Assembly: GCA_033764315.1 (NCBI GenBank)
Contig: JANRJA010000191.1
Location: 21,249 to 85,248, forward strand
Source of the DNA: Oculatellaceae cyanobacterium bins.114
GTDB taxonomy: Bacteria; Cyanobacteriota; Cyanobacteriia; Elainellales; Elainellaceae
Direction: 5' to 3'
Length of the DNA stretch: 64,000 nucleotides
Within the stretch, counting starts at the first letter, position 1; every line of letters starts with the position of its first letter. This document shows, piece by piece, positions 3,461-60,042 of the stretch. Position numbers and translations under genes: made by a program. The notes beneath the pieces were generated by a model that was given only the letters and a program-made list of their open reading frames with translations, made no database searches and was not told the DNA's origin.

Positions 3461-3495
3461 GCAGTAATGATTTGAGCTGCAATGATGTGATCAGC

Positions 3496-3548: not shown

Positions 3549-3698
3549 CCATTGCCGTCGCCACAACGGTTCTTTTGCAGTCCTAAATCCTGGATTAGAT
3601 GTAGTGATGTCCTATTCATTAGAACTGTCATTAAGAGTGAAATATTTGCATTGAAGTCTCTACTTAAACTCTCTACAAATACTTCAGTCTTACTCAAT

Positions 3699-38351: not shown

Positions 38352-41300
38352 TTAAGGGGCGATCGCTACATTCGCTGGGCTAGCGAAGTCAGCGACCATC
38401 GACGGCTCAAGAAAATAGTGAGCAACAGCAAGAAGTTCAGGAGGGTTAGAGGACTCAGACTGGCTATCTTTAGAGGTCGCCAGCAGACCAAGAGTAAACA
38501 TGTAACGCCCTGATTGAGACCCTTCATTTTGCCAGGAAAGAATTTGTGCCTGTATTTTCGGTAATTCGGCAATCAACTTAAGGGTGTTCAACGATGGCGT
38601 TAGGGGTTGCTCATGAGCAACGACGGTTTGAATCTTACCTGCTTTCTCTGGGGTGACATGTTGAACAATGAACTGTAGGGTGTAGGCTTTGTCCGATAGA
38701 ACGGTTTGCAGGAAAAGCTGCCAATCAGGCAACTGACGAACCTGATCCAGCACGTTTTCGAGATGGGCCGCCAGGATACGAGAAACGGGGATATTGTCGG
38801 ACGTTTTGAGGGTAGCAATATTCTGGTTGGGCTTGAGATATTCAAAAATGTCGGTTAGTGCCAGAGAGAGGTGTTCAATCTTGAGCAGAGGCAGGTTGAG
38901 GTTATCGGTCGTGCTTAATGCATCGGCGGTTTGGGGTTGGGCAGCAAAGATGCTAAGGCTGAAAATATAACGCCCCTTGGCTTTGAGGGGTTTTTTGTCG
39001 CTGTGCCAGTTGAGAATTTCATTGGTGATGTTGTCTTGAAGTGAGTCAGTACGCTGAGACATGGTTTGCTGCGAATTGGACTCGCCCGACGCAGCGGGGA
39101 TGGCAAAGCGGGGGCTGAGGAAAACGGGCAGGGAGGAAAGCAGATCATCCTCCAGACCTGGATCGCCTAAGACCAGAGCAAAGGCATACTGGCAGGAAAT
39201 ACGGATGTCGTAGGGGCGATCGCTCTGCTCAGGTAAGAGGGTGTTGAATAGCAACTCAATGTGGCGGCGCAAAGGACGAATCAGGGGCAGGTTTGAGGCA
39301 GGTTCAGATGGGGTTCGGAGGGTGGCGATGTTCCAGCGATGGGGATTGGTCAACAGTGGAGAGAGGCGATCGCCAAACCGAACTTCTGGAGTTTGGAAGA
39401 CAAAGGCAGGATTTGTCATCATCCCAGGCACCAACCCTTTATTGCGGGTGAGCCAGATCGACCCCCAGGCATTTTGCTGATTGATAATGTCTAAGCTAGG
39501 CAAGATCAGCTTGCGATCGGGAATATCTGATTCACCAAACTTTTGCACCAGGCTTGTGTCAGCCAGAGGCGTGAACTCGTAGAGTTGGGAGGTGATGGGC
39601 GTACTGGAGGTACGACGGGCTTGTTCGCCTTCTGGGGAAATGGTCTCCTGGTACTCCGGCAGTTGAATTTGCGGGAAGCGGTTAGTGGCGATCGGAGTTA
39701 CACCCTGTTGGTCAACCTGCACCAGTTGAGATTGGCTATCCGCTTCGGACAGCGGTTGAGCGGTCAGGGTCGGCAGAGCACGGATCGTCACCTGTCGCTC
39801 AGACGTGTCAGGATTTTGCATCTCCACAATCTTTTCTTCGATGCTGTAATCGGCTGAGCGAGATTCATGCAACCGTACAATTTCCAACCAAGCAGACCAT
39901 TGAGTTGCTACCTGGTTTACCAATTTCACCAAGGCTTCCACCGCTTTTCTGACTTTGTTAGCAGTGTCCTGATTCGTCAATTCTTCAGTTGTCAGTTGTT
40001 GCAAGTCAGGGAGTAATTGCGGGTACACCACACTAAAGCGCACCAAAGCGTCAAATAGCGTTTCTTGCTGCGAATCCTCCACAGTGCCACGGATTACCTG
40101 AGCCTCTGCCTCGGCTTCTGACACGTTGTAAAGGATGCGAGTTTCGATGGCATCTTGAGCGATATCAGGATGCTCATAAACCAGTTCATATTGCCATTCC
40201 CGCACTTGCTCTAACCGAGCCACACTATCCGGATCGGCATTAGCCTGCTGCAAAATGAGGGAGGGTGACAGAGGAAAAGTCCGCAGCGGAACCGGAATCC
40301 GAACCCGACCTAAGTAATTGGGAATGCTGGTGTTGGCATGGGTGAGAATGACTCCCTGATGAGCGTTTAGAGTTTGCTCACCCAGTTGGGTTTTAAGATC
40401 GGTTAGGAACTCAGACTGGACGACCCACTGTTGACCCACCAGGGGTTGCAGGGCTTCCAGAATAGAATCGGACAAACCTGCCGTTCGTAGGGCTTCTATA
40501 ACCCCAGTTGTCATCTGGTAGTCATCCTGCCCATCGTTCTCTTCGAGGGGCAACACAAACCGCAGCCAGGATGATACTTGATGGGCTTCGTCGATGTTGT
40601 ACTCCAGTTCGTTTGCCTGATACATCAGCGGCAGTTCAAAACCTTCTTCAAACCGTTCTGGAGTTTTGGTGTTAAAGAAGAAGGTGAGGTGAGCCGGATA
40701 GTCAGCACGGGGATCGAGCGGAATCTTGGCAGGAGACAAGGTAAAGTCGGGGGTGGAGGGGGAAGCAGAGGAGTTAGCAGGGGTAATGACAATCGGTTTC
40801 CCAGCTAGACGGGGCACTACAGATTGGGGTACCTGCCGCCGCCAGGGTTGCTGATTAGCAACTGCCACCTCCACGTTGTATTGAATGATGGTTTCAATGT
40901 CATAGGCTTCTGCTAGATTGACCCGCAGTTCTCGCAAGAGAGTATCTGCCGCTGCCTGCAACCGCTTAAATTTGGTGGTGTCCGCTGCACCTGAAGGTGT
41001 GAGAGAGAGGATGTTTGTGACCTGTTGACTGATGGCGATCGCCAATGTCTCTTTCTGATCCAGAATGGCTTTAACCGAATCATTCAGATTCAGGCGAGAC
41101 AGGGCAGGAATAACACTTTCGGGACGCAAAAAGGCTTCCACAGCCGCCAAAAAATCGCGTGCCAGACGATTCAAATCCACTGTGTCAAATCGTTGTTCTG
41201 TGGTGGACTCCTTCGACTCATTCAACCCACTGCCTGAATCATAGGCGGGAATTTTCACGTTGCCAGCCATCAGCGTATTCGCCAGCGGAGCCGCTGTAAA

Positions 41301-44300
41301 GAAGAAGGGTACGGCCTCTTTGATGTCGTAACGCAAACCCATTTCTCCCACATGCACTGCCCAGAGACTTTGAGTGCTCTGATCAACCGACTCTGTAGCC
41401 GTGGCACTAGAGGGGCGATCGCCACTGGTCGCCAATCGCAAACCCGGAAAAGCAGATTGGAAGCGGGTCGCAAAGGCTTCTAAAGAAGTCGTGCGATCGT
41501 GTTCTGAGGCACTAGTCGCCGCCATTCGGGGCTTAAACAAAGCAGTTGAAGTTTGCACCGTGAGCATCGATTGCACCGTTGGGTGAATCAACTCAGCTTG
41601 GCGGCGAATGTCTACCTGAACCGTAACTGGGGTAATTAATTCCTTGGCATAGCGCAGCTTGTTGTTGCTATCGGTGAGGGGCAAGGTCAGAGTGTAGTGA
41701 GCCTGCTGAGGAGGAGGGATCAGGCGTTGGTTGGGATTGAGTAGCCCTTCAATGAAGGCGATCGCCTCTGCTACTTGAACGAAGGTAAACCGTTGTCCCA
41801 AGTGTGAGTCGATCCAATCCAGCGATTGCCGCAGCAGACGCACTTCGACCTGCATCCGCTGATTCAGGGTCAGGGCTAGATTACGGTTACTCCCCGACCT
41901 CTGGTTCAGAAGAAAGGTGTGCAGTTGGGTGGCTGCCTCCGGATCAAACTGATTCTGAATAGCCTCCACCGTCCGTAGGCGAGCCAGCAGCGAATTTTCA
42001 AGGGAAGCTAGATTGGTCTCAGCTGCATTAATCTCGACCTCCTGGCTCTTAAGCCAGCGACGACCTGCATCCACCATCAGAGAGAGCACCCTAAACACCT
42101 GTTCCATCCGCACCTTGAGACTGTATAAGGTTTCGTGGGGGCGGGTTTTGGGATTCGTGAGGAAGCCTTGAACCGCCTCAAGGAGAGGCTTAAGGCTTGT
42201 GCGGGTCGATGCATCCCAAATAGAACCAAAGTGGAGTTTATCGGTAGTCGCTTCGGAGATGAGCAGGGATGCCAGAGAGAACAGCGGGCTAGAGTCAGAA
42301 AGCAGGTTGACATCAGCGTTCAACAGACCATCAACCTGTTGATTGGCGATCGCCACATCCACAGCGGTCAATGGCACCCCTATCTCAAAACTGAGAGCAG
42401 CAGTGGCTCCAACTAGAGAGCCATTGGAATTAGTGATGGCGTTGCTCTGAGTAAAACGTACCCGCTGGGGAATCTCCAGGGTTTGCGCGGAAGTGAGTTT
42501 TTTAGTTTGATTTTGCAGGGCGATCGCCACCACTGTCAGTTGATCGGCTTCTAGAGTGATGTAGGGAGAGATGGAAGGATTTTCGCTCAAAGCCTTGATC
42601 TTTTGCTGCACTCCCTCTAGGCTGTCCTTCGCTCGCCAGGGATAGTCTACTCCAATTGCAAGCCGCACATTCGCCAAAAGCAGCCCCTCTTCGGTTGCCA
42701 GTTGGGCGATCGTGCGTCCTGTTTTGGCGGGCAAAGTGATTAATCCTAATGTATCAGTGGCTGTCACAGCATAACCATTGATGATTTTTTTGGTGTTCAA
42801 CAGGTTAGGCACATCCTTAAATTCCTCCCACAACTGTTGAATCTTGGCATCTACCTCAACCATTTTTGGGGTTTTCAAATTACTGCTAGATAGAGCCGCC
42901 ATGCCTCTAGCGGTAGCAACATCTTCTAGAAGGGTTTCTGCTCGCACAAGGGCGATCGCCAGGGTAGACAGGCTGTGAGTTGAGAGAACCTCCCACTCTA
43001 CCGGAATCACAATCTCTGTACCAGCGGGCCAGAGGGGAGCAACGGTGCGATTGGTCTGAGCCAGATCGACAACCGTGGTGTTATAGAGGGTCGCAACACC
43101 TGCCAGGGTTTCCTGTGAGGTAACGGGGTGAGTGACTGGCTTTACTTCATCTAGAGCAGACAGGTAAGCCTGAGCGCGATCAACAAATTGAGTAAAGAAA
43201 GCAGTCCATGTGGTAGTTGAACTGGTTGGCTCGGATGGGAAGCGGTAGGGAATATACAGCTCTGCTGGAGTAGCCCCCGAATTCAGATGCAAGTCTCGAT
43301 TGCGCTGAACCAACCCTTCCAGGCTGAGGGCATCGGCAGAGAGTCGCACCTGCTCTGTATGGAAGGGGAGGTGTTGAGCCACCAACTGCACTTTTTGGAG
43401 GATGATATCGAGGCGATCGCCCTTCTGCCAGGTGTAATTGAACGTCAACGGCCACGCTACATCCGTTACCCACAGCGATGACTGGTCAAGCAGCCTAGTC
43501 ATCACCTGGTCTGGGGTGAGGTTAGCCACCTGAGCCAGATCAGCCAGGGTATCGCCAAATCGGATGGAGTAAGCTAGCGAATTGGTGAGGGAAACGACTC
43601 GTCCAGTCTGCAACAGGTGAGGATAATTGCCAATAGCCCGCAACAACCGCTCCCTAAAGTTCGTTCGTTTTGTATTAGCGTCTGCACCAGACAACGGAGG
43701 TAGACTGCGCATTTCTTCGAGAGCTTCCGCAAGTGGATTGTTAGGAACAGCGTGATTCAAGACCGCCTCCAGTCGTGCCCCCAAATCGATTACCTCGTTT
43801 AGACTGAGAGGCTGCTTTAGGGTGAGCGTCAGGGGAATGTGGAGTACATCTCCGGGGGCAAACAGATTGACAAGCCCCTGGTTAGGCGAACCTAGCGTTT
43901 CTACGGGGACGTTATAGGTCTGAGCTAAAGCCGTCAGGGTGTCGTTTTGACGGAGGGTGTGGAACGTCCACAGCAACGAAGTTTGAACGGCGAAAGTAAC
44001 ATCGGATTGATGCAGCTGATAGGAAACTTTTTCAAAGGTGGTGCGATCGCCCCGAATCTTTTGACGCACCTCTTCTGGATCGGCTCCCTCTGCTACCTGA
44101 TAGGGGGTCTGATCCAACACCAACTCCAGTTCCAGGTCAACCGTGTTCGCTACCGATCCGGGTTTAAAGCTATAGCTTTCCGACACCGATGGCCACTGGT
44201 TGATGCCCACTACTTCATCGAAATAGCGAACCTCTAACGTGTCTGGCAGAACGGGCTTATCCGTCAGCCGATTGCCAAACAAATCTTGCCAGTAAAATTC

Positions 44301-47300
44301 CACACTGACCGCTGCATCTGCTGCAATGCCTCGATAGGGATTCAGGGCACCCTGTTGAGCAGCAACGGGATTCGCCAGAGAGGATACCGGAATCACCCGC
44401 TCATAAATCCACCAATTATCATCCTTTGTGGTGGTGGGGTCATCGGCGATCGGGCCGAGGGGCAACCCCTCAGGGCTGGTGGCAAACCGGGAGTTGTTAC
44501 TCGGCTTCGCGGCATCCTTCACCTGATAGCCCAGCAATTGGTACAGGTTTGCCAGATCATCCTCTCCCGATTTATCTTTGGGGTCAAACGGAATTCTCTC
44601 TCGCTCCACGCGAAACCCGATATTTCCGGCTGGAATGTTCAAAACGTTGACCCGCTGGGGACTCTCGATATAAAAATCCACCTCATCGTCGTTGCCGATG
44701 TTCCCTGGCAAGGCGTCTGGTTTAACCGCCACACAATTTTGGAATGGATAGACTTGCTGCCCATCTCCTGCTTGAATCAGGAGCACCAGACTTGCCTCCG
44801 AGCCGTTTTTAAATAACGCCTCTGACAATTCTGCTGATGCACTATTAACGTTGAGGTAAAAGCCTCCATCCTGGAGGGCTGTACTTTCCAAAATCATTTG
44901 CAGGAAGCGATTCACTTTATCCGCCTGCAAGGATGCAACATAGCCCGAATTGGTTTTATTCAACGCCAGGTTGGTCTTCAGCAGCAACACCTGAGACGCC
45001 GACAAACTGGTTAATACGCTGTCTACAGAGGCTCCGTTGGGCAGGCTGTTTCCACTCCCGGTGTATTGAGTGGCATAGAGCAGATGCAAGGTGGGAGTAG
45101 CATCCGATTCTAAAATGGCGTCGAGCAGCCGCTTGCCCGGTTCATCCGTGCCCACCATCAGGTAGGTATGGGGGAGGGGCACTCCCGTATCCGGCTGACG
45201 GATCTGGCGGATGGTTAAGGGCACACGGGTCATCCACTGACCTGCCACCACTGGGTCTTGGGCGATCGCCACTGGTTTTCCAGCCTGGGAGGTGGTGTTC
45301 GCTCGGAGGCTCAAGTTCATGCCATTAGGAAAGCTTTGCAGGGCAGCCTGCAAATCGGTGGGAAGCTCCAACAGATAGTCACCTTTTCCAGAGGTGCCAG
45401 GGGACCAGATGCTCTGATTGCGAACCGAGTAGCGAGGCGGAACGGCGTTGTAGAAAGGGATCAGGGCGGCTCGTCGCACCTGTTGGGTAATTCGAGTTGA
45501 CTTCGCTTGCTGAAGCAAATTCAAGGTTGTGGAAGCATTCGCATCTGTGTAGCGGAGTGAGGCACTGGGTTGACTGATGTTGGTGCCATCGTAATCCGTG
45601 AACTGCACCCAGGTGAGGTCATCAGGCTTTTGAAACACCAACGTCTCCAACTGGCTGGCCTGAGTTACAGAGAACTGTTGACCCGTAGCCACATACAGAC
45701 CTTGGGTCAGCAAACTAGCTGGATTGCTGGTGCTGTTCGTTTCGGTGGGGGTGGGAGTGGGAGTGGGAGTGGGAGTGGGAATCCGTAACCCATGCAGCAA
45801 GAAGCGAGAGATCGTCCCTGCCATGTGGTTAAAGGAGGGCGTGGTATTTAACCCATTCAGCAGATCTATTAAAGATGTGGTGTAACCCAGGCGAGAAGTT
45901 GTCTGAGTCTCAATTTCAGCCTCCACATAGTCGATCGCACTTTGTAGACCCAAGCGGATCAGCAACAGGAAGTAGTCTGCAAAAATCAACTCAGCAATGG
46001 AGAGTGACGCACTAATCGTATTCTCAGTAGATGAAATAGCCCGTGGCTCGGCACTATTGCCATGACCCGCCAGAAAATAGCGCGTGTAATTACGAATCTG
46101 CTGGAGGTAGGTTGGTTTGTGTTTGGGTTGGTCAAATCGGGTGGTGCTTTCAGCCGTACCACTTCCCAATTTCATGATCAATTGCGGCAGCATGGGGAAG
46201 AGAGAACCACTCAGCATCTCTTGGCCGATGAGGCGATCGCTGATGTCAAAGACAAAATTGTCCTTCAAGAAAGTTCCTAGATCGGTCAAGAAGGAGGGAA
46301 TGTTGGCTTGGGACTCAAAGTGGTCGATGAATGACTGATAGAGATCCTCCAGGCTATCCAGAGACAATCGTGCCGTTTCTGGGTTAAATCGGGTCTGGTT
46401 GGGGGTATAGGCGTGGATCGCCCAAATCAGTAACGCCTTGGCCAACACATCAAAGTCAGTGTCGATGTCATGAGGGGCATTGGCAATGGCTTCGGGCTGA
46501 TCTTCGCCTTTAGGGATAAAGTTTTCGATAAACAGCAGAGCAATACCATAGCTTTCATACTTTATTGGGTCTGTTGTTGCTGCGCCTGCCGTTGTTGTGC
46601 TGGTTGCCGTGGCATTGGTCGTCGCATTGAGGTTTTCTCTGCGGGTTAGAGCCACTTGCAGGTACAGGTTGATGATGGGTTTTGTGGGGGTGCCACCCGA
46701 TTCAGGCTTCGGTTCAGACGATTGGGATTGTTTAGCCCATTTCGTCATGTCCAGGGTGAGGGATGCCCAGGAGAGCGATCGCACCCCTTCCTCAATCAGT
46801 CCTACCAAATTAGTAACGCGGATGGGCGGTGAGGCAACTGGAGCAATTGGGGTAGTGAGGGGGTGGGTAGGAGTTGCAGCAGTTGCCCTAGCAGGAACAG
46901 TCACCGTTCCCCGTTGCAGAGGCATCGCCACCTGGGGTTGGCGAGAGCGATCGAGGGCAGGCATGGCTCCTGCGGCAGCGACCTGCTTTAAACGCCAGGG
47001 GGTTGGGCTGGCGGAACCCAAAATGAACTCCTGCCGAATCTTCAGGCTGAAGCTGAAATGGATCCGAATAAAGACAATCTTGATCGAAGCTCGCACGGAT
47101 ACTTCTGCTTCCAGGGCTAACAGAATGGGCTGGTAGCATTCCACCACAAACAGGATCGCCACCCGCACAATCACCTCTACCTCTACCGTGATGACGGAGA
47201 AATCGACAATGCCGTAGAGCCGACCAACGATCGCCACTCCCCCCTGAATCTTGTAGTAGACATCTTTGGCAACGGTGGGATCGGAGGGTTTGAACCAGGC

Positions 47301-49940: not shown

Positions 49941-50029
49941 AGAACAACCTGAATGCAGCAGCGGAAAAGAGAGGTGGGGGCGATCGCTAGGAACCTGGAT
50001 GGCTCAACAATTAACGCCGAAGAGTAACG

Positions 50030-50698
50030 CTAAGGAGTCTTGTTGGTTTCTGCATCCGTTTTTGCGTCAGTTTCCCCAGGCAGCTGCTTCTCATCCGAGG
50101 TTATCTTTTTCGCTTTCTCTAAGTTACTCACCTTCACATACAGCCCTTTTAGAGACAGGTTGCCAAAGAGTTTTCCTTCACCCGCATCGGTATCCCATGC
50201 AGCAGAAATGCCCACACTGTAAAGTGTGTCTGGTGGAGCCGCTGAACCTGGAGATGGAGATGGATTTGGAGATGGAGACGGAGTTATAGCTGAAGTCGGT
50301 TTTGGAGGAATCTTCAGGTAAAATTCTTCGATCGTGATATCGGCATCTAAAATCAGGGCAATGACAGGACCAATAACGGGGAGTTCTTTCAACTCTGCTT
50401 TGACATTACCTTCGTTATCAAACAAAACACTTGGATCAGCTCCCAGTTCTTCCAGAATCAGCTTTATATTTTGCCCAAGTTCACCCAACGGAACGGGTCC
50501 CGGCAACTCACATTCCAGCCCATATTCAGCAATTTTGTTAATGGGTGTTGTTGGCTGCAAGCCAATCTCGGTCTTCGTTAATTCAGAGGTCTTTAGCTCA
50601 AACACCACACCCAAATAAATGTCGGGTGTTATGGCGGTGGCTTTTGGAGTAGTAGCTGGAGGACTATTAGGTTTATTGCCAACTATCTGACCAGTCAT
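50030..50698 (-). CDS. Hypothetical protein (about 222 aa) with a Pro/Ser linker
   Basis: Likely ATG at 50698 with AAGGAG RBS; co-oriented inside the giant-protein locus. Confidence 0.75.
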   Translation of the reverse strand: MTGQIVGNKPNSPPATTPKATAITPDIYLGVVFELKTSELTKTEIGLQPTTPINKIAEYGLECELPGPVPLGELGQNIKLILEELGADPSVLFDNEGNVKAELKELPVIGPVIALILDADITIEEFYLKIPPKPTSAITPSPSPNPSPSPGSAAPPDTLYSVGISAAWDTDAGEGKLFGNLSLKGLYVKVSNLEKAKKITSDEKQLPGETDAKTDAETNKTP

Positions 50699-50898
50699 TG
50701 TAAAACGCTCCTTAAGAAATAAGAAATGAGAATTGGGCAGTGAAAATGTGAAATCTAATACCAATCAAATATGAGGATGCGCTAAATTAAGCACCCCCCT
50801 GTAGTCCCCCTTGGTAAGGGCGACAGCCGGGGGTCCAATAAGACACATCTTCAGATAAAAAGTTGATCTAGGTTTCATTGGGGTCTTTGTTGTCTGAG

Positions 50899-51255
50899 TT
50901 ATCCTGAGTCGGGTCGATTCCATACAACCAGTTGAATGCGTAGCGGGGACTGAGATGGCAGCAAATTCACCTCCCCTTCAGCGACGTAGCCATCCTCATC
51001 CCTTGTGACTTCCACAGGTAAGTTCTCCAGGGTTCCAGGAGCACTGGTTGAGTCAAATTCAATAGGCAAATTGAGGGCATAAAGCTGGTTCAATGCAGCA
51101 ATGAATTCGCGGATGGTTTGAGTTGTAGACAACCCTTCTTCGTCGGTCATGGCGATCGCCCATTCAATCGGAAAATTGAGGGCATAAAGCTGGTTCAATG
51201 CAGCCATAAATTCGCGGATGCTTTGGGCTATAGCAAGCTTCTCTTCGTCAGTCAT
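50899..51255 (-). CDS. Small hypothetical protein with a 35-aa N-terminal tandem duplication
   Basis: MTDEEKLAIAQSIREFMAALNQLYALNFPIEW repeated as MTDEEGLSTTQTIREFIAALNQLYALNLPIEF. Confidence 0.7.
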   Translation of the reverse strand: MTDEEKLAIAQSIREFMAALNQLYALNFPIEWAIAMTDEEGLSTTQTIREFIAALNQLYALNLPIEFDSTSAPGTLENLPVEVTRDEDGYVAEGEVNLLPSQSPLRIQLVVWNRPDSG

Positions 51256-51330
51256 GGCGATCGCCCCCTTTTGAAATACAGTTTCATCATTGATTTGCCT
51301 TTTATCGTCATTCCTGTGTCATTACTGGCT

Positions 51331-54300
51331 TTAACGGGTTGTCCGTGTGGCGGGTTGTTGGGTTGCATCCGGGGGTGGCGGATCTTTGGCATAGGCGGCA
51401 TACCAGCCGATCGCCTCTGATTTGCCGCGTAAGCTGGGGTCACTGCTCAACTTGGGATTACCAAAGAGAATCAGTTCCGTTTGCCCAGTAGGAGGCAGCG
51501 ACAAAACCAATATTTTCAACGCCAGATTTCGCATTTTGAGCAAATAGCCGCGAATCGTATCTTTAGAGGGGCGATCGACGACAAATTCCAAACTCTTAAA
51601 CGACAGCTTCAACACACTCTGAATCGGGAAACCCAACACATCGCCGCCAATTCCCGGCAACTGTAACCCCACAAACACCTGAGGATTGGTCTGCTGACCA
51701 TCGGTATTAGGAGTCCAGGCAACCAACACCTTGACCTGCAACTGCGCCGACCCTGACAACGCTCCCAAACTGCCCAGATTCAAGTCATAGATAAATCCAT
51801 AGCCTGCCGTCGGCATGCCACCCGTCAGGGGATTTTTCACGGCCATAAACCCCTTAGGCTGGGTATCAGGGCCAATTTGCACAAAGCTTGCTAACTGCAG
51901 GGGGAACATGGCATAGAGGCTGTTAGGTCGAGGTTTTGCCTGTTTCAAGTCATAAATCAACTGCCCCGCATCAAAGGTAAAGTTAGGGTTGGGTGGAACC
52001 TCTTCCGCTTCCGCCGGATCGGTCGTCTTAGCCTCTTCTGAGGTTGTTTCAGGGGGATTGGTCGTCTCAGAATCTGCCTTCTTAGGGTCGGGTGAGTCTT
52101 GCAAAAAGGTCATCGTGATCTGGACATTGGAAAAAGGCAGCACCTGTTGATTGTCCTGGAGATTGTTTAGTTCCGTTTCCATCACTTGCAGGGTTTTTTC
52201 CAGTTCCTCTTGTCGTTTCTCGCGTTGCGCTTCCGGTTGAAACAGATCGTTAGCAACAGTGTCTCGCTGATCAGAGTTGCTTAACAACGCTGCTCGGTTG
52301 AGCGCGATACTAGAGCCAAATCCGATCGCATCAAATTTGTCTAAAAATCGGAAGTTAAACTGTCCCCATAGGGTAAATCGTCCAGTAATTGTTTTGGGGT
52401 CAGTTTCTTTGGGAGGATCAGTCTTTTTGGAGGGGTCAGTTTCTTTGGGAGGGTCAGTCTTTTTGGGAGGATCAGTCGAAAAGTTGGCTTTGACAATGTT
52501 GATGCTGTCGAGTACGTGGCTATCAAGCGTCGCAAAGTAACTCTCGCCACTGAAACTGAAGGTGTACTTGGGTTTGCCATCCTGGTTTTCGGCAGTGCCC
52601 TTAAAAGTCAGCAGATTGCGTCCGGTACGACTGTTGAGCAAGCGCGTTCCCTCGTTAAACAGTTGGTCTACGGTCAGACTCACTTCACTCGAAAACGCCT
52701 TTAAATAGGAGTTTTGGAACAGCACCCGCAGCATCGACACTTGAAAGGCATAGCCCGATGGCCCAACCGCAGGAATGGCATCATCTCGATAGTCGATCAG
52801 GGCAAACAGCGATGATTTCTCTGCTTTTAGGACATTTCTGGGTTTCTGTCCTTCTGCGGTGATCGTTTCAGATAAAACCTGGGTCGTTTCGATCACGACA
52901 TATTGGGCAAAGAAATCCTCTTCTTTGATCCCGACTGCCAGTGCCCGCAACTCCTCTGGGATTTCACTGGGGGGAACTTTCACATTCAGGGCAATGATGC
53001 CCGACCAGGCTCCCAATCTAGTTGCCTGTGCCAAATACTCATAGTTTTCGCGATCGCGGGGTGTGGCATCCTTAGAGCCTCGCTGTTGCACCTCCTCAAA
53101 CAACTCTATGAGATCAGCCCCAATGGCTGGATTGCTGTTGAAGTGCTCCTTAAATGACCAGGTGGTTTCATCTGCTAACAATTCGAGCAGCGGTTTTTCA
53201 AAAAACTTGAAAATTAAAACCGTATCCTCACGCCATTGACTTGGGTTGAAATCAAATGTCCAATCCTGAATAACAAGCTGATTATCGGTCAGGTATTTGG
53301 TCAGAGTATTGTAATCAGAAATCACCAGAAACATCTGATTTGATTGAAACGCATCTCTCAGGGGCAATCGCTGCGGCAAATTGGTCAGCCGAACATCCTT
53401 GCCTGCCGTATCTTTCGCCAGCAGCAAGCTTTCCAACATTTCGTAATCGCTGGAATAGGTCGTCAAAAACCCCTGAGGTGTAACTCCTATCACGTCTGAT
53501 ACACCCGTCGGACCCAATAGCGTGTCATCCTGTTGGCTGAGGTCAATAATGCGCGATCGCCGCTCTGGGTTAATGTATTGCTGCTCCAGTTGTTGATAAG
53601 GTCTGACAGGATTGGGCAACCGTTGGTCTTTCCAGAGTTGACGATAGTAATCCTCGGTCTGGATACCACCGTAGGGCAACAGCGGAAACCCCCACGGCTG
53701 ACCACTCTCTTGATTAAACGGTTCAATGTCGGGCAACCCTGTCACAGGCACTTCCAAAAAACTCAAAAGGTTATCGGTAGAATCCTGGTTTTGATCGGTG
53801 ACCGTAGAGGCTCCATACAACAATGACAGGTCTGGCTGAGCGTAGTAAATGGCAGGCTTGAACGAGGATTCTCCAGCTTGGCTCACCGTTTTTTGACGCA
53901 CAAAGGCCCAGGCTGTCCGGGCTTCGTCTGTAAATCGGGATGAGGCTTTGGTCTGGTTGAATGAACTGTTTGTTGAAGAATCGGTTTTTGGAGAAAAGTT
54001 AAATACAAAGGCAGGTTGCTTGGGTCTAAAGCAGAGCAGATTCACAGAGGGAGGATCAAGCTTGATGAATTCTACTCCTGATAAACCACAAAGCAGATTA
54101 TCCAGATCTGTGATCGGATAGGGTGGAAGTGTTTTAGCACTGGTTGATTTAGGATTTTCTGTTTTGGAATCTGTTGTTTCAGAATCTGTTGTTTTGGAAT
54201 CTTTTGTTTCAGAATCTGTTGTTCCAGCACTGGTTGTTTCAGTGCTTTTTGTCTCAGGATTTTCTACTTCAGTGCTGATTGATTTAACACTTGTTGTTTC

Positions 54301-55725
54301 AATGCCTGTTGTTTTAGTATCTGTAGTTTCAGCACTTCCTTCTTCAGCATTCGTTATTTCAGGACTGATAACTTCAGGATTTTCTGCTTCAACATTTTCT
54401 GCTTCAGGATTTGTTGTTTCAGTACTTGTTGATTCAGTTATTACAGCTTCAGGATTTACGGCTTTAGCTTTTGTTACTTCTGTTACTTCAGTATTAGTTG
54501 CTTCAGTACTTGTTAATTTAGCGTTGTCCTCAGTCTTCTCAGAGTCATATCGGGGCACCGACATGGCAAATTCACCAGAGGGCACCAAATAGAAGGAATT
54601 ACTGGAGGAAGAGGGTTGGGCGATCGCCCGTTCTTCAAACACCAAGCGGGTTCCATCTTGCGGAGTGAGGTGAATGGAATACCCTAGATTGGTGCGATAG
54701 TTAGATGGAAAATCCGTTGGGGTGACCTGGTCTGCTGGAGGACGGAATGCAAAATAAGTTCGGCTCTCTTGCAATGGATAGAGAGGATCAAGGGTGACAT
54801 CAAAGGTCAGATCTGTGGTGTAATGCGACAGAGCTTCAGCGTCTTCTCCCATCAGGGGATAGCGGTGCGAGGTGATGGAAAACCGCTCCTGGTCGTTGAA
54901 ATCTGCTAGGGGTGGGGCAGGGTCTAGAAAGAAGATCCGCAACGCCACATCCAGACATTTCAACTCCTCATAGGTTTGTTGTTCCTCAGGTTGTGGGCGT
55001 TTTAAAGTCAGGCCAAATTGCAAGCATCCCGCCTGATCTCCAATGAAGGGTAGGGCGATCGCCCGCTTTGGCTCTTCCGTGGAGGATGGAGCGATCGCTT
55101 CACCTTCTTTTACCTCACCCTCTTTTACCCCAACCTCTTTTAAGCGATGGGTTCCATAGTCCGTCAACAATACAAATGGCTGTGAGGAGAATTCCGCTTC
55201 ATCTTCATGAGCCTGGAATAAAAATCCTGTCTCTGTCAACAGCACCTCAACCCCACGAGCGATCGCCAACCCATAGTTACGCCAGTCTAAAACGCTGTAT
55301 TGGTCGATAGTAGGAGGGTCTGGTTTGGGGGCAACGGACAGATACACAAATCGCCAACTGGACAACGCTTCTCCTGGATTCTCAACCCATAAAAACCGGG
55401 TTTGCGAAAAGGTGGGTTCCGCCAACAATTTATAGACCCGATTTGCCAATGCCTGATCCAGTGAAACCTCACTTCCGCCTAACATCAGGTAAAGCCCCTC
55501 ATGATTTTCCCAAGATTCCTTTAAGGATAAGGTTTCAGCAATAGCTAGAGCTGCGGCTGTGAGCGGCTTGTAGTGTAGAAAAGCAATCTGAACCAGCTTC
55601 GTATCCCAGGTGGGCTGATCCAGCTTATAAAAGTGGCTGTTGACAGGACGAGTCAATTGAAGGGGTGAGTCTGGTGAAGTTGTCATGGTGGTGAGCACTG
55701 CGGGGGGAAACAGAGTCGAACTCAA
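51331..55725 (-). CDS. Large hypothetical protein (1464 aa) with a Thr/Glu-rich repeat insert and a beta-rich C-terminus (GWYAAY)
   Basis: 4.4-kb ORF. The start could be TTG 55725 or ATG 55686. Confidence 0.85.
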   Translation of the reverse strand: MSSTLFPPAVLTTMTTSPDSPLQLTRPVNSHFYKLDQPTWDTKLVQIAFLHYKPLTAAALAIAETLSLKESWENHEGLYLMLGGSEVSLDQALANRVYKLLAEPTFSQTRFLWVENPGEALSSWRFVYLSVAPKPDPPTIDQYSVLDWRNYGLAIARGVEVLLTETGFLFQAHEDEAEFSSQPFVLLTDYGTHRLKEVGVKEGEVKEGEAIAPSSTEEPKRAIALPFIGDQAGCLQFGLTLKRPQPEEQQTYEELKCLDVALRIFFLDPAPPLADFNDQERFSITSHRYPLMGEDAEALSHYTTDLTFDVTLDPLYPLQESRTYFAFRPPADQVTPTDFPSNYRTNLGYSIHLTPQDGTRLVFEERAIAQPSSSSNSFYLVPSGEFAMSVPRYDSEKTEDNAKLTSTEATNTEVTEVTKAKAVNPEAVITESTSTETTNPEAENVEAENPEVISPEITNAEEGSAETTDTKTTGIETTSVKSISTEVENPETKSTETTSAGTTDSETKDSKTTDSETTDSKTENPKSTSAKTLPPYPITDLDNLLCGLSGVEFIKLDPPSVNLLCFRPKQPAFVFNFSPKTDSSTNSSFNQTKASSRFTDEARTAWAFVRQKTVSQAGESSFKPAIYYAQPDLSLLYGASTVTDQNQDSTDNLLSFLEVPVTGLPDIEPFNQESGQPWGFPLLPYGGIQTEDYYRQLWKDQRLPNPVRPYQQLEQQYINPERRSRIIDLSQQDDTLLGPTGVSDVIGVTPQGFLTTYSSDYEMLESLLLAKDTAGKDVRLTNLPQRLPLRDAFQSNQMFLVISDYNTLTKYLTDNQLVIQDWTFDFNPSQWREDTVLIFKFFEKPLLELLADETTWSFKEHFNSNPAIGADLIELFEEVQQRGSKDATPRDRENYEYLAQATRLGAWSGIIALNVKVPPSEIPEELRALAVGIKEEDFFAQYVVIETTQVLSETITAEGQKPRNVLKAEKSSLFALIDYRDDAIPAVGPSGYAFQVSMLRVLFQNSYLKAFSSEVSLTVDQLFNEGTRLLNSRTGRNLLTFKGTAENQDGKPKYTFSFSGESYFATLDSHVLDSINIVKANFSTDPPKKTDPPKETDPSKKTDPPKETDPKTITGRFTLWGQFNFRFLDKFDAIGFGSSIALNRAALLSNSDQRDTVANDLFQPEAQREKRQEELEKTLQVMETELNNLQDNQQVLPFSNVQITMTFLQDSPDPKKADSETTNPPETTSEEAKTTDPAEAEEVPPNPNFTFDAGQLIYDLKQAKPRPNSLYAMFPLQLASFVQIGPDTQPKGFMAVKNPLTGGMPTAGYGFIYDLNLGSLGALSGSAQLQVKVLVAWTPNTDGQQTNPQVFVGLQLPGIGGDVLGFPIQSVLKLSFKSLEFVVDRPSKDTIRGYLLKMRNLALKILVLSLPPTGQTELILFGNPKLSSDPSLRGKSEAIGWYAAYAKDPPPPDATQQPATRTTR

Positions 55726-55754
55726 GGCAATGAAACGATCTCCTCAAACCAGGT

Positions 55755-58700
55755 TTAGAGGAAGATGCGATCGCCCTTCACCACAGGCAAGTCATAAGGA
55801 TCCCACCCAATGGCGGTAGCCTGGGCATTGCTCAAATTGACAAATCGATAACTCGGGGCATCGTCAATCCCCTCATGGATCAGGCGACTGATGCGGGGTG
55901 TTCCCATTTGCAAGGTCAGGGTTTGACCCGGTAGCCCCATAGGGACGCTGGCATAGCGTTCCAGCACTTGCCGCAGAGTTGTTCCAACGGGCACATACTC
56001 CGGCTGTCCCTGCACAAACACCGCAATTTCTGGAATCACCGTCGCCCGTCCCCGAAAGAACACGCTCAGGTAGTCGTTTGTACTCTCCAACCGACCAGTA
56101 CTCAGCAAGCGTTGGGTTGCCTGGTTTAAGTCAACCAGGCTTTTAGCTCCAATCAGAGCCGTCGTCCGTTCGCCATTGGGCAATCCCTCATTCCCAGCGA
56201 CCTGGCGAGGATACACCAATCGTCCGTAAGGCATTCGGTATCCCACCCGGAACAGGTCGATGCCACCCCCAAAGCCTAACTCCTGGTTGGGCTGTGTTGT
56301 CAAAGACAGTGCCGAAAGGAAGGCATCCAATCCCAGGAAAGGAATGGGCCCATTCCTTCGATAACTGTTGAGGTGGTAGTAGGTGGTGCCACTACCGACA
56401 AAACCACTGCTGGCACTGGGACTGGCGGGATGGACAAACTGATAAGTCTGGTAATCGACCCGCAGGCGCATTCCCCCATGCAGGTCGATGATATTCTTAT
56501 CTGGCTCAAAGCCGTAGTAGTAATACAGCAGTTGATCTAGCGGGAGGGGCAACCGTTCGGCAATCCGGGCTTTCACCAGGGTGAGGGCACCGGGGTAGAG
56601 CGATCGCTCCTCTACCTTTTCCAAAAACGTTTGGTAGTTTGCCTTCAGTTCCCCTGGGGATAAACTGCCGGGGTTCAGCGTCAGGATATAGCTTTCAGTG
56701 TCGGAATCGTGTTTTAGGGAAAACGTACCGAATGAAATGTCTTCAGGGGAGCTAAACAGGTTGGGAAGGGTCGTTGTCTGTGAGGAGCTAGAAGGGGAAG
56801 AGTTACCCCCCAGGTAGAGCAAGGGGCGATCGCCAACCACCGTAAAAAAGTAATCTTCAGGATGGCGAAAGGTACTCGCAAAAATGGTTCCAGCCTCTGC
56901 CTTCAGTTTGTCTAACAGCAGATCTAGAATCTGATTAGGGGTAAAGGGTGGCTTCACCACGGGGAAGGGTGGAATGGTGAACGTCAGGGACGGCTTTACC
57001 GCAGACCAGGAAAAGGAGCCGGAAATATAGGCTAAAAAGCCCAGGCTGGTAAGCTCCAGAGCCACTGTTGCGGTCAACTCGCTGTCTAACGTCACCGAGT
57101 TGATCAAAGGTGCCCCGGTTTCAGGATCGCGGATGAGACCCAGAGGGAGTCGGAAAGGAAGTTGGAAGGCGATCGCATCGTGCAACACCATTCCCCGTCT
57201 CGGATCCTGGTTATAGAGAGCTAGAGGTTGATCCAGCCATCTGCCATTCAGCACGACCCGCTGTTTATCATCTATTAGCTTAAACCCAAGCACTGGGGGC
57301 GTTAAGCGCAACTTAAAGTCTGTATTGAAATCAAAAGGCCGCCCATCGCGTAGACGAGGCAGCATCACCTCTGTCATATCGGTTGTGGAATTAAGCTGCC
57401 AGATAGAACCCTCTAGAGTGCGCTGGCTCTGCAATTCTATCTGCGAGAACACCAGCGTATTCAGCCCCTCTAATCTGAGGTTGACCTCTGTGGAACCGCT
57501 AGCTGGAGTCACCAACGACAAATTTACGCCATTCCCATTCACACTTCCATACATGCCAAAGGTCAGCGCATTCCCCCAAAGCAACCCTTCCACCGAACCC
57601 GAAGCCAGCACCCAATCGATAGGGGGATCAATCGAATTTGGTAATGGTCTTCGCAACACCATTTGAATAGCCGTGAACTGTAACTGATCTGCCACTGACC
57701 AGTTCCCAGCATCCCTCAGGCTTAATTCCAGGTGATTGCTTCCCACCTGCTCCATTTTCAACGTTGCCAAAAAGGGCAGGTTTAGGGGAGCGGGGGCATT
57801 TTTTAGCCGAAATTGCCCTTTAATTTCCAGGATGGGGTAATACTGCTGATAGATTTCCTCAGGGGGCAAGGCTCGACTAAAAATCGCAACCCGATACAGG
57901 TCACCCTGCCAAGGACGATTGTGTTTATCATTAGCTCTGCTTTCCGGTGAGTAAGATACCTCGTTCCCTAAGCCCAGAGCATAGGCAGCGTCATTCTGAG
58001 GCCAGTCAAGATTACCCCCAACGGCACGATCCTCCTTCAGGAAACCATTCACATAAAATTTTGCATTCTGTTCGCGGTTGTTCTCTTTCTGCGGCTCAAA
58101 GGTATAGGTTAGACAGACCAGATTGTTGGATACAAGACTCGGCTCAGTTTCCAGGGAAGGCTCTCCGTTAGCATTCGTTTCCTGGGTGCGAAAGCGGACA
58201 ATGTAGCGATCGCGCCTAGTCGTTGGATTTCCATTTCCCTTATCCAGTGACAGGGCAAAACAGCGATTTGAAATATCTTTGGAAAGGGTGACAATTCGAG
58301 CGGGTGCATCAGGGAACGTCATCTGCTTAGACCGTAGCCAGGCAACGATGCTGACTTTCTGACTGGTTCGGCAGGCATCAATGACTCGTTTTGCGGAGCT
58401 GACGGCTGCCACTGCCCCAGCACTGGGACTTCTAGCCGCGATGCCACTTGAAACCAGGGCATTTTCATTGAAGGAAAGATATCCTGTGTCCCATCTCACC
58501 GTTGTTGGAGCCGTTTGTACCCGCAAATCAATGGGCTGCTCTGCCCCTGAGCAGTCATAGACGACCGATCCCTGGCCTTCATCAAAACTATAGAGAGCTT
58601 GTAAGCCTTCAGTACTGGTTGTTGAAGGCTTAAGCCGTAAGGAGGTTACATCCAGGAAGCCCCAATTGCCAATGGCGATCGCTGGCAGAGCTGGGGGTGC

Positions 58701-59219
58701 AATGCTAAACGCTAAACGACCATCCTCTCCCAACCCCACAGTTAAGGGAATCTCAGCATCTAGTACGACGGCTGTTACACTCCCTTGAACCCGAAGGCTA
58801 TTCTCACCAATTCCTTGGGTAAACGTTAGAGCCAAGTCTTTAAAGTAAGAAAAATTTTCAGCGTGAAGGTCAAGCGCAGAGTAAGGGCTACAGGCAAATT
58901 TTTCAGGGGCGAGGATGGTAATCGAAAGTTGATTAGCTTGATAGGTTAGGGTAGCGTTTTGAAAAGCATCGGCGGGGGATGCAGGCAAATCACACAAAAC
59001 CAGGCTACCGATATATTGCTTTGGCCTTACAGGATTCACAGGCTCCTGATCTAGGCTTTGCAAGGTTCTGATAACTGACTCTAAGGGTTGACTTGTAAAA
59101 CGTGCATCGGAATTAAGAAAAAAGAATCGAATCCCAGTGGTGGTTAACTCATATCTGATAAAACTAGCCGATCTTGCGGGGTCTGAAGATACGAGAGTAA
59201 TGCGACCATAACCGAGCAT
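55755..59219 (-). CDS. Large hypothetical protein (1154 aa) with a LamG/concanavalin-A-like domain
   Basis: GLQALYSFDEGQGSVVYD.SG ... VSIVAWLR ... FYVNG ... LGNE ... WQGDLYRVAIFSRAL..EEI is a LamG-like jelly-roll pattern. Confidence 0.85.
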   Translation of the reverse strand: MLGYGRITLVSSDPARSASFIRYELTTTGIRFFFLNSDARFTSQPLESVIRTLQSLDQEPVNPVRPKQYIGSLVLCDLPASPADAFQNATLTYQANQLSITILAPEKFACSPYSALDLHAENFSYFKDLALTFTQGIGENSLRVQGSVTAVVLDAEIPLTVGLGEDGRLAFSIAPPALPAIAIGNWGFLDVTSLRLKPSTTSTEGLQALYSFDEGQGSVVYDCSGAEQPIDLRVQTAPTTVRWDTGYLSFNENALVSSGIAARSPSAGAVAAVSSAKRVIDACRTSQKVSIVAWLRSKQMTFPDAPARIVTLSKDISNRCFALSLDKGNGNPTTRRDRYIVRFRTQETNANGEPSLETEPSLVSNNLVCLTYTFEPQKENNREQNAKFYVNGFLKEDRAVGGNLDWPQNDAAYALGLGNEVSYSPESRANDKHNRPWQGDLYRVAIFSRALPPEEIYQQYYPILEIKGQFRLKNAPAPLNLPFLATLKMEQVGSNHLELSLRDAGNWSVADQLQFTAIQMVLRRPLPNSIDPPIDWVLASGSVEGLLWGNALTFGMYGSVNGNGVNLSLVTPASGSTEVNLRLEGLNTLVFSQIELQSQRTLEGSIWQLNSTTDMTEVMLPRLRDGRPFDFNTDFKLRLTPPVLGFKLIDDKQRVVLNGRWLDQPLALYNQDPRRGMVLHDAIAFQLPFRLPLGLIRDPETGAPLINSVTLDSELTATVALELTSLGFLAYISGSFSWSAVKPSLTFTIPPFPVVKPPFTPNQILDLLLDKLKAEAGTIFASTFRHPEDYFFTVVGDRPLLYLGGNSSPSSSSQTTTLPNLFSSPEDISFGTFSLKHDSDTESYILTLNPGSLSPGELKANYQTFLEKVEERSLYPGALTLVKARIAERLPLPLDQLLYYYYGFEPDKNIIDLHGGMRLRVDYQTYQFVHPASPSASSGFVGSGTTYYHLNSYRRNGPIPFLGLDAFLSALSLTTQPNQELGFGGGIDLFRVGYRMPYGRLVYPRQVAGNEGLPNGERTTALIGAKSLVDLNQATQRLLSTGRLESTNDYLSVFFRGRATVIPEIAVFVQGQPEYVPVGTTLRQVLERYASVPMGLPGQTLTLQMGTPRISRLIHEGIDDAPSYRFVNLSNAQATAIGWDPYDLPVVKGDRIFL

Positions 59220-59806
59220 AAAACTTAAGGGGGGCTAAAGGAAATTGTTTCAGATCAAGCTCGAACTATTTATTAGCAAATCGTTAATCTCATTAAGGCA
59301 AAAAAATAATTCACAACCTTCTACAAGTCTGCCGATTTATTATATTTACTTGATAAATAAAGATTTACTCTTAATAGATTGAGATTAAAACAAAGCTGGA
59401 AATCAGAGAAAACAAAGAAACTATTAATAAAGAATGAAAGGTTTTCTTTTTGAAATTTAGCCTGGATGAATCTTGATGTATTTAAAGTAATGTATTTAAA
59501 ATCCACCCACATAATAATAGAAACTGGGTCAGGAGCATGTCAAGTAAAAAAAAATATTTTTATTCAAATAAATGTAAATTAATAGGGGAAAATATCTAAA
59601 CAGAATTGATTTTTTTGCATAAAAGGTGTACTTTTCACTTGTTCCTCAACTGCATATTTCCTTTTTCCTGTCAATAAAGTAAGATGACTCCCAACCAATC
59701 CCCAGTTAAATCAGACAGGGTAAGGACAGAGTGCTTTAAGGAGAAGCATTTCACACTCTTTACCAGTCAATAGGTAAAAAGCTAGGATTACCTCCAATTA
59801 ATGTCA

Positions 59807-59884
59807 TATAGCAGTCCTAAATCAGTTGTGAGATGAGCTGGTTATGAGGAGTACGCCTCTCACAACCCATTTGGGATTGCTATA
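59807..59884. mobile_element. MITE-like element (same family as 10262-10332)
   Basis: TATAGCAGTCCTAAAT...ATTTGGGATTGCTATA. Confidence 0.75.
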
Positions 59885-60042
59885 TTTATCTTGAGTATTT
59901 ATCCTGAACATGATTTGAATCAGCATCAGATTTAAGTCGATATCAGATCAACTTTATTGAGTTAAATAGTTGCAATCCTGCCTACTCCTCCTGCCTCAAA
60001 AATCAGCATCGACTATTGACCAATGACCTGTAACTAAAAGCC

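Follow-up and report, generated by a model that had tools for sequence, protein, structure and literature searches.

The locus at positions 38352-59219 of the window, by which we mean the whole 64,000-nucleotide stretch of contig JANRJA010000191.1 from Oculatellaceae cyanobacterium bins.114 analysed here, raises the question of what five neighbouring genes, three of them coding for very large proteins, might build together. The initial annotation of this DNA regarded them as a candidate new macromolecular system. Our answer is that the locus is a horizontally gained island with one member of a widespread uncharacterised module, which has three conserved scaffold parts (the C-terminal domain of the first protein, W1, the second protein, W2, and the giant fifth protein, W5) and an exchangeable cassette between W2 and W5. 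We read the module, tentatively and with a little less than even confidence, as a conflict system made of a scaffold and an exchangeable effector, that is, an envelope-associated or released complex that presents or delivers effectors. We regard the machinery of the module as new; its W1 and W2 partners and its variable cassette are shown here, and its function is putative.

ORF calling reproduces the layout given in the initial annotation, with five co-oriented open reading frames (ORFs) of 1154, 1464, 118, 244/222 and 3862 aa, all on the minus strand and separated by gaps of 29-200 bp (from W1 to W5 these are 29, 75, 134 and 89 bp, the third becoming 200 bp with the ATG start of W4):

55755-59219, minus strand: W1, 1154 aa, lectin-type and variable in its front half, conserved in its C-terminal domain
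51331-55725, minus strand: W2, 1464 aa, with no known domain
50899-51255, minus strand: W3, 118 aa, first protein of the variable slot
50030-50764, minus strand: W4, 244 aa from a TTG start, second protein of the variable slot
38352-49940, minus strand: W5, 3862 aa, the giant protein

The start of W4 is probably the ATG at 50698, which gives 222 aa as in the ESM Atlas record.

Linkage of W1, W2 and W5 across phyla

A W2-seeded pattern scan of genome contigs returned 125 related loci, 80 of which were used for gene content as determined by ORF calling and clustering of the loci. A W5-family ORF is found downstream of W2 in every one of the 64 loci whose downstream sequence reaches at least 4 kb (64/64), and a W1-family ORF lies upstream of W2 in 39 of the 64 whose upstream sequence reaches at least 1.5 kb. 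With W5 always downstream of W2, the search for synteny across phyla that had been proposed for this locus shows W1, W2 and W5 behaving as one conserved unit. W2 itself is conserved in blocks at aa ~60-400, 544-1146 and 1241-1460, with low-complexity linkers between them. By the record titles of the related loci, the carriers belong to at least 10 phyla, comprising Cyanobacteria, Bacteroidota (Saprospiraceae/Lewinellaceae, Flavobacterium and Mucilaginibacter), Chloroflexota, Planctomycetota, Actinomycetota, Bacillota, Acidobacteriota, Pseudomonadota (Pseudomonas, Leclercia, Rhizobium, Vreelandella and Caulobacter) and others, and the flanks outside the module are not conserved among the loci. 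The W5 core described below is present on nine plasmid records, for example those of Nostoc carneum, Tistrella mobilis, Burkholderia sp. FERM BP-3421, Mycetohabitans rhizoxinica (pBRH02), Azospirillum, Paenibacillus and Lysinibacillus, and has no match in the phage collection that was searched. In RefSeq the plasmid copies are annotated as hypothetical, LysM or Hint-domain proteins, and their genes overlap or abut. A HINT/pretoxin-HINT protein is encoded upstream of W1 in Pseudomonas, a Chlorobiales metagenome-assembled genome (MAG), Oceaniradius and Tistrella.

Several lineages vary the layout. In Flavobacteriia, two small ORFs stand upstream of W2 in place of W1. The N-terminus of one, which is ~150 aa long (L060 8376-8846 and relatives, family f3), forms a hydrophobic, Sec-like leader, the sole apparent export signal of the module. 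Saprospiraceae have an extra gene downstream of a split W5. The copy on a Lysinibacillus fusiformis plasmid (L094, NZ_CP118715.1) is a compact three-gene version of 284, 1100 and 2102 aa that lies beside a tyrosine recombinase, with a defence-island-like set of annotations nearby (HNH endonuclease, vWA, DUF2075, nucleotidyltransferase and E2/UBC).

A variable cassette between W2 and W5

The place that W3 and W4 hold in the window, with W2 on one side and W5 on the other, is a variable cassette, a finding that is new here. Its content was recorded in the 66 loci having both W2 and W5 (three of the 19 loci listed as having no gene contain unresolved gaps of 1.4-2.1 kb):

19/66 loci: no gene
17/66 loci: endonuclease/exonuclease/phosphatase (EEP) class
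10/66 loci: unknown ~500-aa family f4, of Flavobacteriia type
9/66 loci: W4-like small proteins, 6 of them with a W3-like partner and one a Bacteroidota MAG
7/66 loci: metallo-beta-lactamase-fold (MBL) class
1/66 loci: PLD-like protein
1/66 loci: Bd3614/MafB19-type deaminase
1/66 loci: protein with PF03497 (Anthrax_toxA)
1/66 loci: unknown 510-aa protein

Despite this changing content, the slot gene, where present (47/66), lies on the same strand between W2 and W5. Pfam matches among the 47 slot ORFs scanned are to Exo_endo_phos in seven (best E 3.6e-9) and Lactamase_B in five, together with PLDc_2 in an Elainellales MAG (G012, E 5.1e-10), the deaminase in Lewinella cohaerens (E 1.8e-10) and PF03497 in a Lewinellaceae MAG (E 1.2e-12). 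The EEP label was extended to families f5, f11 and f28 through jackhmmer links, and the MBL label to all of f8 through BLAST clustering. All 18 sequences of EEP-class cassettes (18/18) retain the columns N27, E79, H269, D305, N307, D399 and H489; because we take these residues to be the EEP catalytic motifs, the cassettes look, as far as sequence can tell, like active and catalytically intact enzymes. The toxin-type reading offered in the initial annotation gains support from this variable enzyme slot, as typed by the Pfam matches of its ORFs.

On a FastTree phylogeny of 59 W2 sequences, which leaves out rows with a split or short W2 or with unresolved gaps, the state of the slot switches at least 14 times. 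The PLD locus is sister to EEP inside the cyanobacterial clade, the deaminase locus is sister to the PF03497 locus inside Lewinellaceae, whose other members have an empty slot, and the W2 of the window groups with other W4-like loci. Relatives of W3 are confined to loci with a W4-like gene, and they have one or two copies of a ~32-aa helix-like motif that stands twice in tandem in W3 itself, the copies at aa 1-32 and aa 33-65 being near-identical. W4 has no Pfam family. The two proteins may form a non-enzymatic effector or adaptor pair; a predicted complex of W5 aa 1-390 with W4 scored 0.27 against a mark of 0.32, which speaks neither for nor against binding.

The census bears on two other explanations of the module. 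The first is a purely structural component of the envelope, of adhesion or of a sheath, in which the neighbouring enzymes would be incidental passengers, and with this would agree the enzyme-free version in the window, the 19/66 loci having no slot gene and the giant, beta-rich, LysM-bearing character of the proteins. We consider it very unlikely in view of the slot gene keeping its strand and its place between W2 and W5 in 47/66 loci though its content varies, and of the conservation of the EEP catalytic columns. The second starts from the fact that EEP, MBL and PLD, which together fill 25/66 slots, are all phosphoesterase folds: a wall-anchored giant complex might present exchangeable hydrolases at the surface for nutrients or matrix remodelling, much as a cellulosome does. 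A LysM anchor, lectin-type modules and the fact that no immunity genes were seen would suit such a scaffold, whereas the Bd3614/MafB19 deaminase and PF03497 cassettes are ill-suited to scavenging, some copies have the pretoxin-HINT accessory protein, the scaffold proteins have no signal peptides, and the extreme rarity in the phylum would be unusual for a nutritional trait. A display function of this kind is in our judgement distinctly unlikely.

The giant protein W5

The conservation profile of W5 was obtained as the coverage by 206 large homologues, counted per 100-aa bin. The parts of the protein are as follows:

46986-48458, minus strand: conserved core, aa ~495-985, 33-62% identity across phyla
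43827-43976, minus strand: LysM copy 1, aa 1989-2038 (Pfam PF01476 at aa 1994-2035, E 5.6e-8)
43467-43571, minus strand: degenerate LysM-like copy, aa 2124-2158 (domain E 0.0047, iterated LysM profile)
42999-43133, minus strand: LysM copy 2, aa 2270-2314 (domain E 6e-13; weak PF23577 match)
38841-41792, minus strand: conserved C-terminal region, aa ~2717-3700, aligned to the giant of G012
38355-38840, minus strand: C-terminal extension, aa 3701-3862, ~160 aa, in 1/206 large homologues, one close relative

Coverage is highest at aa 500-1000 (205-206/206 homologues) and aa 1800-2000 (200-204/206). In the C-terminal region (aa ~2717-3700) it amounts to 65-187/206 per bin, with 183-187/206 at aa 2800-3000 and 118-153/206 at aa 3300-3700. 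Coverage is low at aa 0-400 (25-53/206) and in the LysM region at aa 2000-2700 (4-39/206), and the N-terminal ~390 aa are conserved only within the subtype with a W4-like slot. Other homologues end at the equivalent of aa ~3700. By eye, the motif of the terminal module just before it recurs in the C-terminal extension, a hint that the last module was recently duplicated in tandem.

The profile of the W5 core matches 1388 representative clusters at E <= 0.001, 1067 of them at E <= 1e-30; most of the proteins are 3000-4500 aa long and have the core near residues 500-1200. The source names of W5 homologues are only 'LysM...', 'Calx-beta domain-containing' or 'hypothetical'. Calx-beta also appears in the precomputed Pfam column, and one plasmid copy is annotated 'Ig-like domain-containing'. 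The several LysM domains predicted for W5 were confirmed as two to three copies, two clear and one degenerate. The PF01476 match scores 33.1 bits against a cut-off of 20.9 and so belongs to the family, and the Pseudomonas putida homologue of W5 carries LysM too, as judged by Pfam.

The core was modelled from a 30-sequence alignment (aa 480-1010) with a predicted local distance difference test (pLDDT) score of 78, as a long antiparallel beta-meander whose strands lengthen to ~20 residues. Its top matches by VIA-align are Occ/OprD porins, maltoporin and BamA/TamA, with Z ~12 and root-mean-square deviation (rmsd) 6-8 Å over 225-255 residues, and Foldseek returned no match from the PDB or BFVD at E <= 0.001. 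The model indicates a large curved sheet or a barrel-like shape, membership of a barrel family not being established. The W5 family is also present in monoderm phyla (Bacillota and Actinomycetota) and lacks a signal peptide. The beta-groove scaffold suggested in the initial annotation, here understood as one of lipid-transfer type, found no confident structural match with either Foldseek or VIA-align.

Domain structure of W1

W1 combines a variable front with a C-terminal domain that is kept across phyla:

57852-58367, minus strand: LamG/concanavalin-like jelly roll, W1 aa 285-456 (Pfam PF13385, E 2.1e-8)
55758-56672, minus strand: C-terminal domain, aa ~850-1154, the sole part of W1 conserved across phyla, with no Pfam family

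The LamG match scores 34.9 bits against a gathering cut-off of 27.6, which places the domain in the family, and in the model the jelly-roll fold spans aa ~200-462. This fold superimposes on lectin-like jelly rolls with Z 18 and rmsd 2.7-3.0 Å over ~200 residues (VIA-align). In the PDB the jelly roll is the sole part of the W1 model with matches, and the top ones are the lectin-like binding subdomains of clostridial neurotoxins, carbohydrate-binding modules of arabinanases and sialidases, and pentraxins; we read them, at the level of the model, as a generic fold match and not as kinship to clostridial neurotoxins. The sole result among PDB sequences is a CBM40-type sialidase lectin, which matches the LamG part at E 0.0017. 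The front of W1 varies among 28 relatives, with LamG in 14, fn3 in four and LysM in one, and alignments of full-length relatives retain residues from M1 on. Outside cyanobacteria and Saprospiraceae, often just the C-terminal ~300 aa are kept: tblastn matches are confined to aa ~830-1154 in loci of Chloroflexota, Actinomycetota and Pseudomonadota, and invariant or near-invariant columns lie at aa 833-1150.

The model of W1 has a mean pLDDT of 65 and is beta-rich up to aa ~760. The segments aa 1-200 and aa 462-760 match each other by hhalign at 89% and are apparent duplicates on either side of the LamG insert. Of the LamG and beta-grasp folds named in the initial annotation, LamG is supported in W1 by both Pfam and the modelled fold, and a beta-grasp at the C-terminus of W1 is no more than a candidate because that region is modelled at pLDDT < 50. 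Long beta-rich stretches had been noted in three of the proteins, and the models bear this out for the two that they cover, W1 and the W5 core.

Searches for known families, export signals and defence functions

Curated family matches by Pfam in W1-W5 are limited to LamG in W1 and LysM in W5, and scans of the five proteins against NCBIfam, PADLOC and PHROGs gave nothing above noise, in agreement with the earlier view that no enzyme, transporter, tail or secretion part is recognisable. The same view held for export signals: in W1-W3 a hydropathy scan shows neither an N-terminal hydrophobic segment nor a segment resembling a transmembrane helix, the hydrophobic runs of W4 and W5 are broken by charged residues in the manner of beta-strands, and the absence of a Sec/Tat signal is thereby borne out. 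In searches of PDB sequences with phmmer (W1, W2 and W5) and with profiles A1, A2 and A3, no meaningful match was found besides the lectin of the LamG part. Alignment of domain slices of W1-W5 by hhalign found the repeats inside the LysM region and no homology between different proteins of the operon, nor between these slices and families f3, f6, f10 and f12. Searches with Pfam, NCBIfam, PADLOC, PHROGs and the PDB thus agree that the locus has no end-to-end match to a characterised system. A full-text literature search, whose coverage leaves out subscription journals, returned no paper on the module.

For W2 and W4 the nearest ESM Atlas clusters are all 'hypothetical', with DUF6603 appearing only at 0.76-0.79, the level of a lead. 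Against DUF6603 (PF20248, gathering threshold 27 bits), three of 30 W5 cores match at E <= 1, the best at 0.005, profile A3 aligns with a true DUF6603 ORF at an hhalign probability of 17%, and the family has no match in the window's own genome. True DUF6603 proteins of ~900 aa are encoded in Lewinella cohaerens (L097, G436:C14:77000-96999) and Streptosporangium (L098, G434:C47), the former within a separate cluster of large co-oriented ORFs of 1400, 1138, 893 and 686 aa. Neither locus shows BLAST similarity to W1-W5, and the two may represent an analogous uncharacterised system.

The PADLOC scan bears on a further explanation, an anti-phage system of the abortive-infection type, in which the giant LysM/barrel proteins would act as sensors of envelope or wall damage and the infected cell would be killed or arrested by the slot enzyme. 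Its patchy and mobile distribution, a variable effector drawn from classes common in defence systems, and the position of the Lysinibacillus plasmid copy beside an integrase and near HNH endonuclease, vWA, DUF2075, nucleotidyltransferase and E2/UBC genes would all be in keeping with defence, and the fact that no immunity gene was seen fits a self-directed effector. On the other hand, PADLOC (PADLOC-DB 2.0) returned only Drt4 at E 0.002-0.015 over ~70 residues of W5, which we regard as noise, neither an NTPase nor a nucleic-acid sensor domain turned up, the modules LamG, fn3, Calx-beta and LysM are of the adhesion type found in extracellular proteins, and 19/66 loci have no slot gene. Weighing these points, we hold an anti-phage function to be unlikely.

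Comparison with known toxin, secretion and injection systems

Tc toxins have several very large co-transcribed subunits that lack signal peptides, carry a hypervariable enzymatic payload, and are patchy in distribution and often borne on plasmids or islands. The module resembles the Tc (ABC) toxins of Photorhabdus and Yersinia (TcA, TcB, TcC) in its very large subunits free of signal peptides, variable payload and patchy, mobile occurrence. It differs in that its payload is a separate ORF and not the C-terminal tip of a subunit, in that the C-terminus of W5 is conserved rather than polymorphic, and in the LysM repeats and barrel-like core of W5, which have no Tc counterpart. The families of the Tc RHS cocoon (RHS/YD, SpvB and Mid) have no match in W1, W2 and W5 at E <= 0.1, nor in the P. 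putida copy. For TcA, no sequence match to solved structures was obtained, the fold of W5 being seen for aa 480-1010 only.

Among polymorphic toxins, LysM and Laminin-G are adhesion modules and pretoxin-HINT is a processing module, as stated in the passages of Zhang et al. 2012 (PMC3482391) cited here. The module is like these systems in its exchangeable deaminase, nuclease/phosphoesterase and PLD classes and in its accessory pretoxin-HINT, LysM and Laminin-G modules, and it is not mentioned in the passages cited. Variable toxin domains on a conserved delivery context, which characterise polymorphic toxins, are found in the slot; a C-terminally fused toxin followed by an immunity gene is not, the cassettes being separate ORFs and the C-terminus of W5 conserved. 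Trafficking markers of the type V, VI and VII secretion systems (T5SS, T6SS and T7SS) were not recognised by Pfam in W1-W5 or the P. putida copy.

Intimin and invasin have a Sec signal peptide, an N-terminal LysM, a 12-strand barrel and lectin- or Ig-type modules. The module shares with such inverse autotransporters its combination of LysM, a barrel-like beta domain and modules of lectin or Ig type. In W5 the order is reversed, the barrel-like core preceding LysM by ~1000 aa, and the module protein is 5-8 times larger, has no hydrophobic N-terminus and occurs in monoderm phyla as well. The inverse-autotransporter barrel gave no Pfam match in W1-W5.

The module is comparable to extracellular contractile injection systems (eCIS) and the T6SS as a self-contained island with variable effector genes and LysM-bearing structural proteins, whereas no sheath, tube, baseplate or ATPase genes are found in or next to the locus. 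The sheath family PF04984 is present in two of five carrier genomes (on other contigs in the window's own genome, G000), the T6SS TssC family PF05943 in none of the five, and three of the five match neither. With the sheath in 2/5 and TssC in 0/5 of the carriers, dependence of the module on contractile systems is not supported, and the idea of an injection-system-associated cargo, raised in the initial annotation, is not upheld. The two sheath-like genes of G000 (PF04984; C150:38803-39312 and C72:3166-3543) are unlinked to the island and suggest a prophage, tailocin or eCIS elsewhere in that genome.

By the logic of its organisation, the module is closest to Tc toxins or to polymorphic-toxin/eCIS cargo systems, yet it lacks the features that define them, namely an RHS cocoon, a sheath or tube, and a C-terminal toxin tip with an immunity gene behind it. 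That it is a divergent member of a known machine, be it a Tc (ABC) toxin, an eCIS/T6SS, or a two-partner or inverse-autotransporter adhesin, we regard as scarcely credible: the large conserved subunits with a variable enzyme resemble Tc toxins and eCIS cargo, and the LysM, barrel-like and lectin/Ig modules recall intimin/invasin, but no RHS/YD, SpvB, TcA, sheath, tube, baseplate, two-partner secretion (TPS) or inverse-autotransporter barrel families were found by Pfam and NCBIfam in W1-W5 or the P. putida copy, solved structures were not matched in sequence by single sequences or profiles, no signal peptide is present, and the sheath and TssC counts among carrier genomes are those given above.

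Proposed function of the module

We favour a conflict system because of the strict linkage of the giants, the interchangeable slot enzymes, which act on nucleic acids, lipids or nucleotides by class and include two toxin-typed domains, the pretoxin-HINT accessory protein, the adhesion modules and the mobility of the module. Three linked giants with a swappable enzyme slot therefore probably make up a weapon or a defence machine of a new kind. In the mechanism that we envisage, the giant proteins would assemble into an envelope-associated or released complex, in which the LysM region of W5 would hold peptidoglycan or a chitin-type glycan and the variable lectin-type front of W1 (LamG in the window) would recognise a surface. 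The barrel-like core of W5 might serve as a membrane-facing or conduit element. The cassette product would be the active payload, elsewhere a phosphoesterase, lipase/nuclease, deaminase or similar enzyme, and in the window the W3 and W4 pair would take the payload position. It is possible, if on the doubtful side, that W1, W2 and W5 constitute a new class of effector-delivery machine, non-contractile, unrelated to Tc toxins and ATPase-free, in which a protein of ~4000 residues, bearing LysM anchors and a porin-like barrel, is combined with an exchangeable, cassette-encoded payload of enzymes or small proteins, and which has spread horizontally across at least 10 phyla.

A number of points weigh against a conflict system. 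EEP, MBL and PLD proteins are also ordinary metabolic or scavenging phosphoesterases and not necessarily toxins, and four f8 members (L067, L083, L088 and L089) and one f11 member (L090) have no Pfam match of their own, their class being assigned by clustering. The window's own cassette (W3 and W4) has no enzyme domain recognisable by Pfam, NCBIfam, PADLOC, PHROGs or the ESM Atlas, and 19/66 loci lack a slot gene altogether. No immunity-type ORF of at least 70 aa lies beside the deaminase, PLD or PF03497 cassettes, unlike in classical interbacterial toxins. W1-W5 show no signal peptide or transmembrane helix in the hydropathy scan, and the Pfam scan found no secretion ATPase or lysis gene in the operon. 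Finally, the barrel-like fold of W5 is that of one AlphaFold model with loose matches (rmsd 6-8 Å).

The locus as a genomic island

The five genes lie in an island between two housekeeping-type genes:

38116-60042, no strand: indel island, between fumC and the HMGL-like gene
36706-38115, plus strand: fumC (fumarase C), flanking gene, assigned by Pfam
60043-60891, plus strand: HMGL-like gene, flanking gene, assigned by Pfam
59220-60042, no strand: upstream spacer, 823 bp, AT-rich
59514-59543, minus strand: sigma-70-like -35/-10 pair inside the upstream spacer, a candidate with 11/12 matches

The distance from fumC to the HMGL-like gene is 21.9 kb here, and in the same-genus genome G001 a single contig carries orthologues of the two flanking genes (94% and 80% identity) with 273 bp between them. 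Alignment of the junctions against this empty site shows shared ends and no obvious att-type direct repeat. The 273-bp spacer of G001 (L099 2908-3180) is full of tandem heptamer-like repeats of the TTGACCA/TTAACCC type, and a short remnant of these repeats is found next to the HMGL-like gene in the window. W2 was matched in four of 41 relatives, the window's genome included; one of the four, in G030, covers a low-complexity linker only and was discounted as spurious. The profile of the W5 core has a match at E <= 1e-10 in one of 401 evenly drawn genomes of the phylum, that one being G000. The island is regarded as an accessory element because of the empty site in the same genus and its sparse occurrence in the phylum.

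HIP1 sites (GCGATCGC) are abundant throughout, as had been observed, with 106 in the window against 0.43 expected. Their density is 1.53 per kb within 38352-59219 (32 sites) and 1.72 per kb outside (74 sites), and because this equals that of the flanks the island appears ameliorated. As to the long residence in cyanobacteria that had been concluded from HIP1, the host-like density is in its favour, and the absence from the same-genus genome and the single W5 core among 401 genomes of the phylum stand against it.

The AT-rich upstream region of about 820 bp recorded in the initial annotation is present, with a GC fraction of 0.349 measured over 59000-59999. The promoter-like site within it is a mere candidate because such sites are not enriched upstream (four found, 3.8 expected from shuffles), and a scan of both ends of the locus found no terminator-like sites. 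Elsewhere in the window, at 62269-63002, a DUF3368 (PIN-like) ORF of 163 aa is preceded by an 81-aa minus-strand ORF with a 4-bp overlap, a layout that resembles a toxin-antitoxin pair.

Implications

The carriers of the module include cyanobacteria, Bacteroidota, Pseudomonas, rhizobia, actinomycetes, Bacillota and a fungal endosymbiont, and its proteins are annotated only as 'hypothetical' or 'LysM domain-containing'. Judged by record title, Pseudomonas putida NBRC 14671, Flavobacterium frigoris DSM 15719, Lewinella cohaerens DSM 23179 and Nostoc carneum NIES-2107 are culturable carriers. Should the module prove to be a conflict system, it would represent a new family of large machines of conflict between organisms, with more than 1000 sequence clusters, and would add a delivery principle beside the T6SS, eCIS, Tc toxins and contact-dependent inhibition (CDI). 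The fixed position of the cassette would then mark f4 and W3/W4 as new families of effectors, and a large modular scaffold of this kind would be of possible engineering interest. Even if the function turns out to be defence or display, three giant orphan families in such strict linkage pose a problem that is well defined and can be tested.

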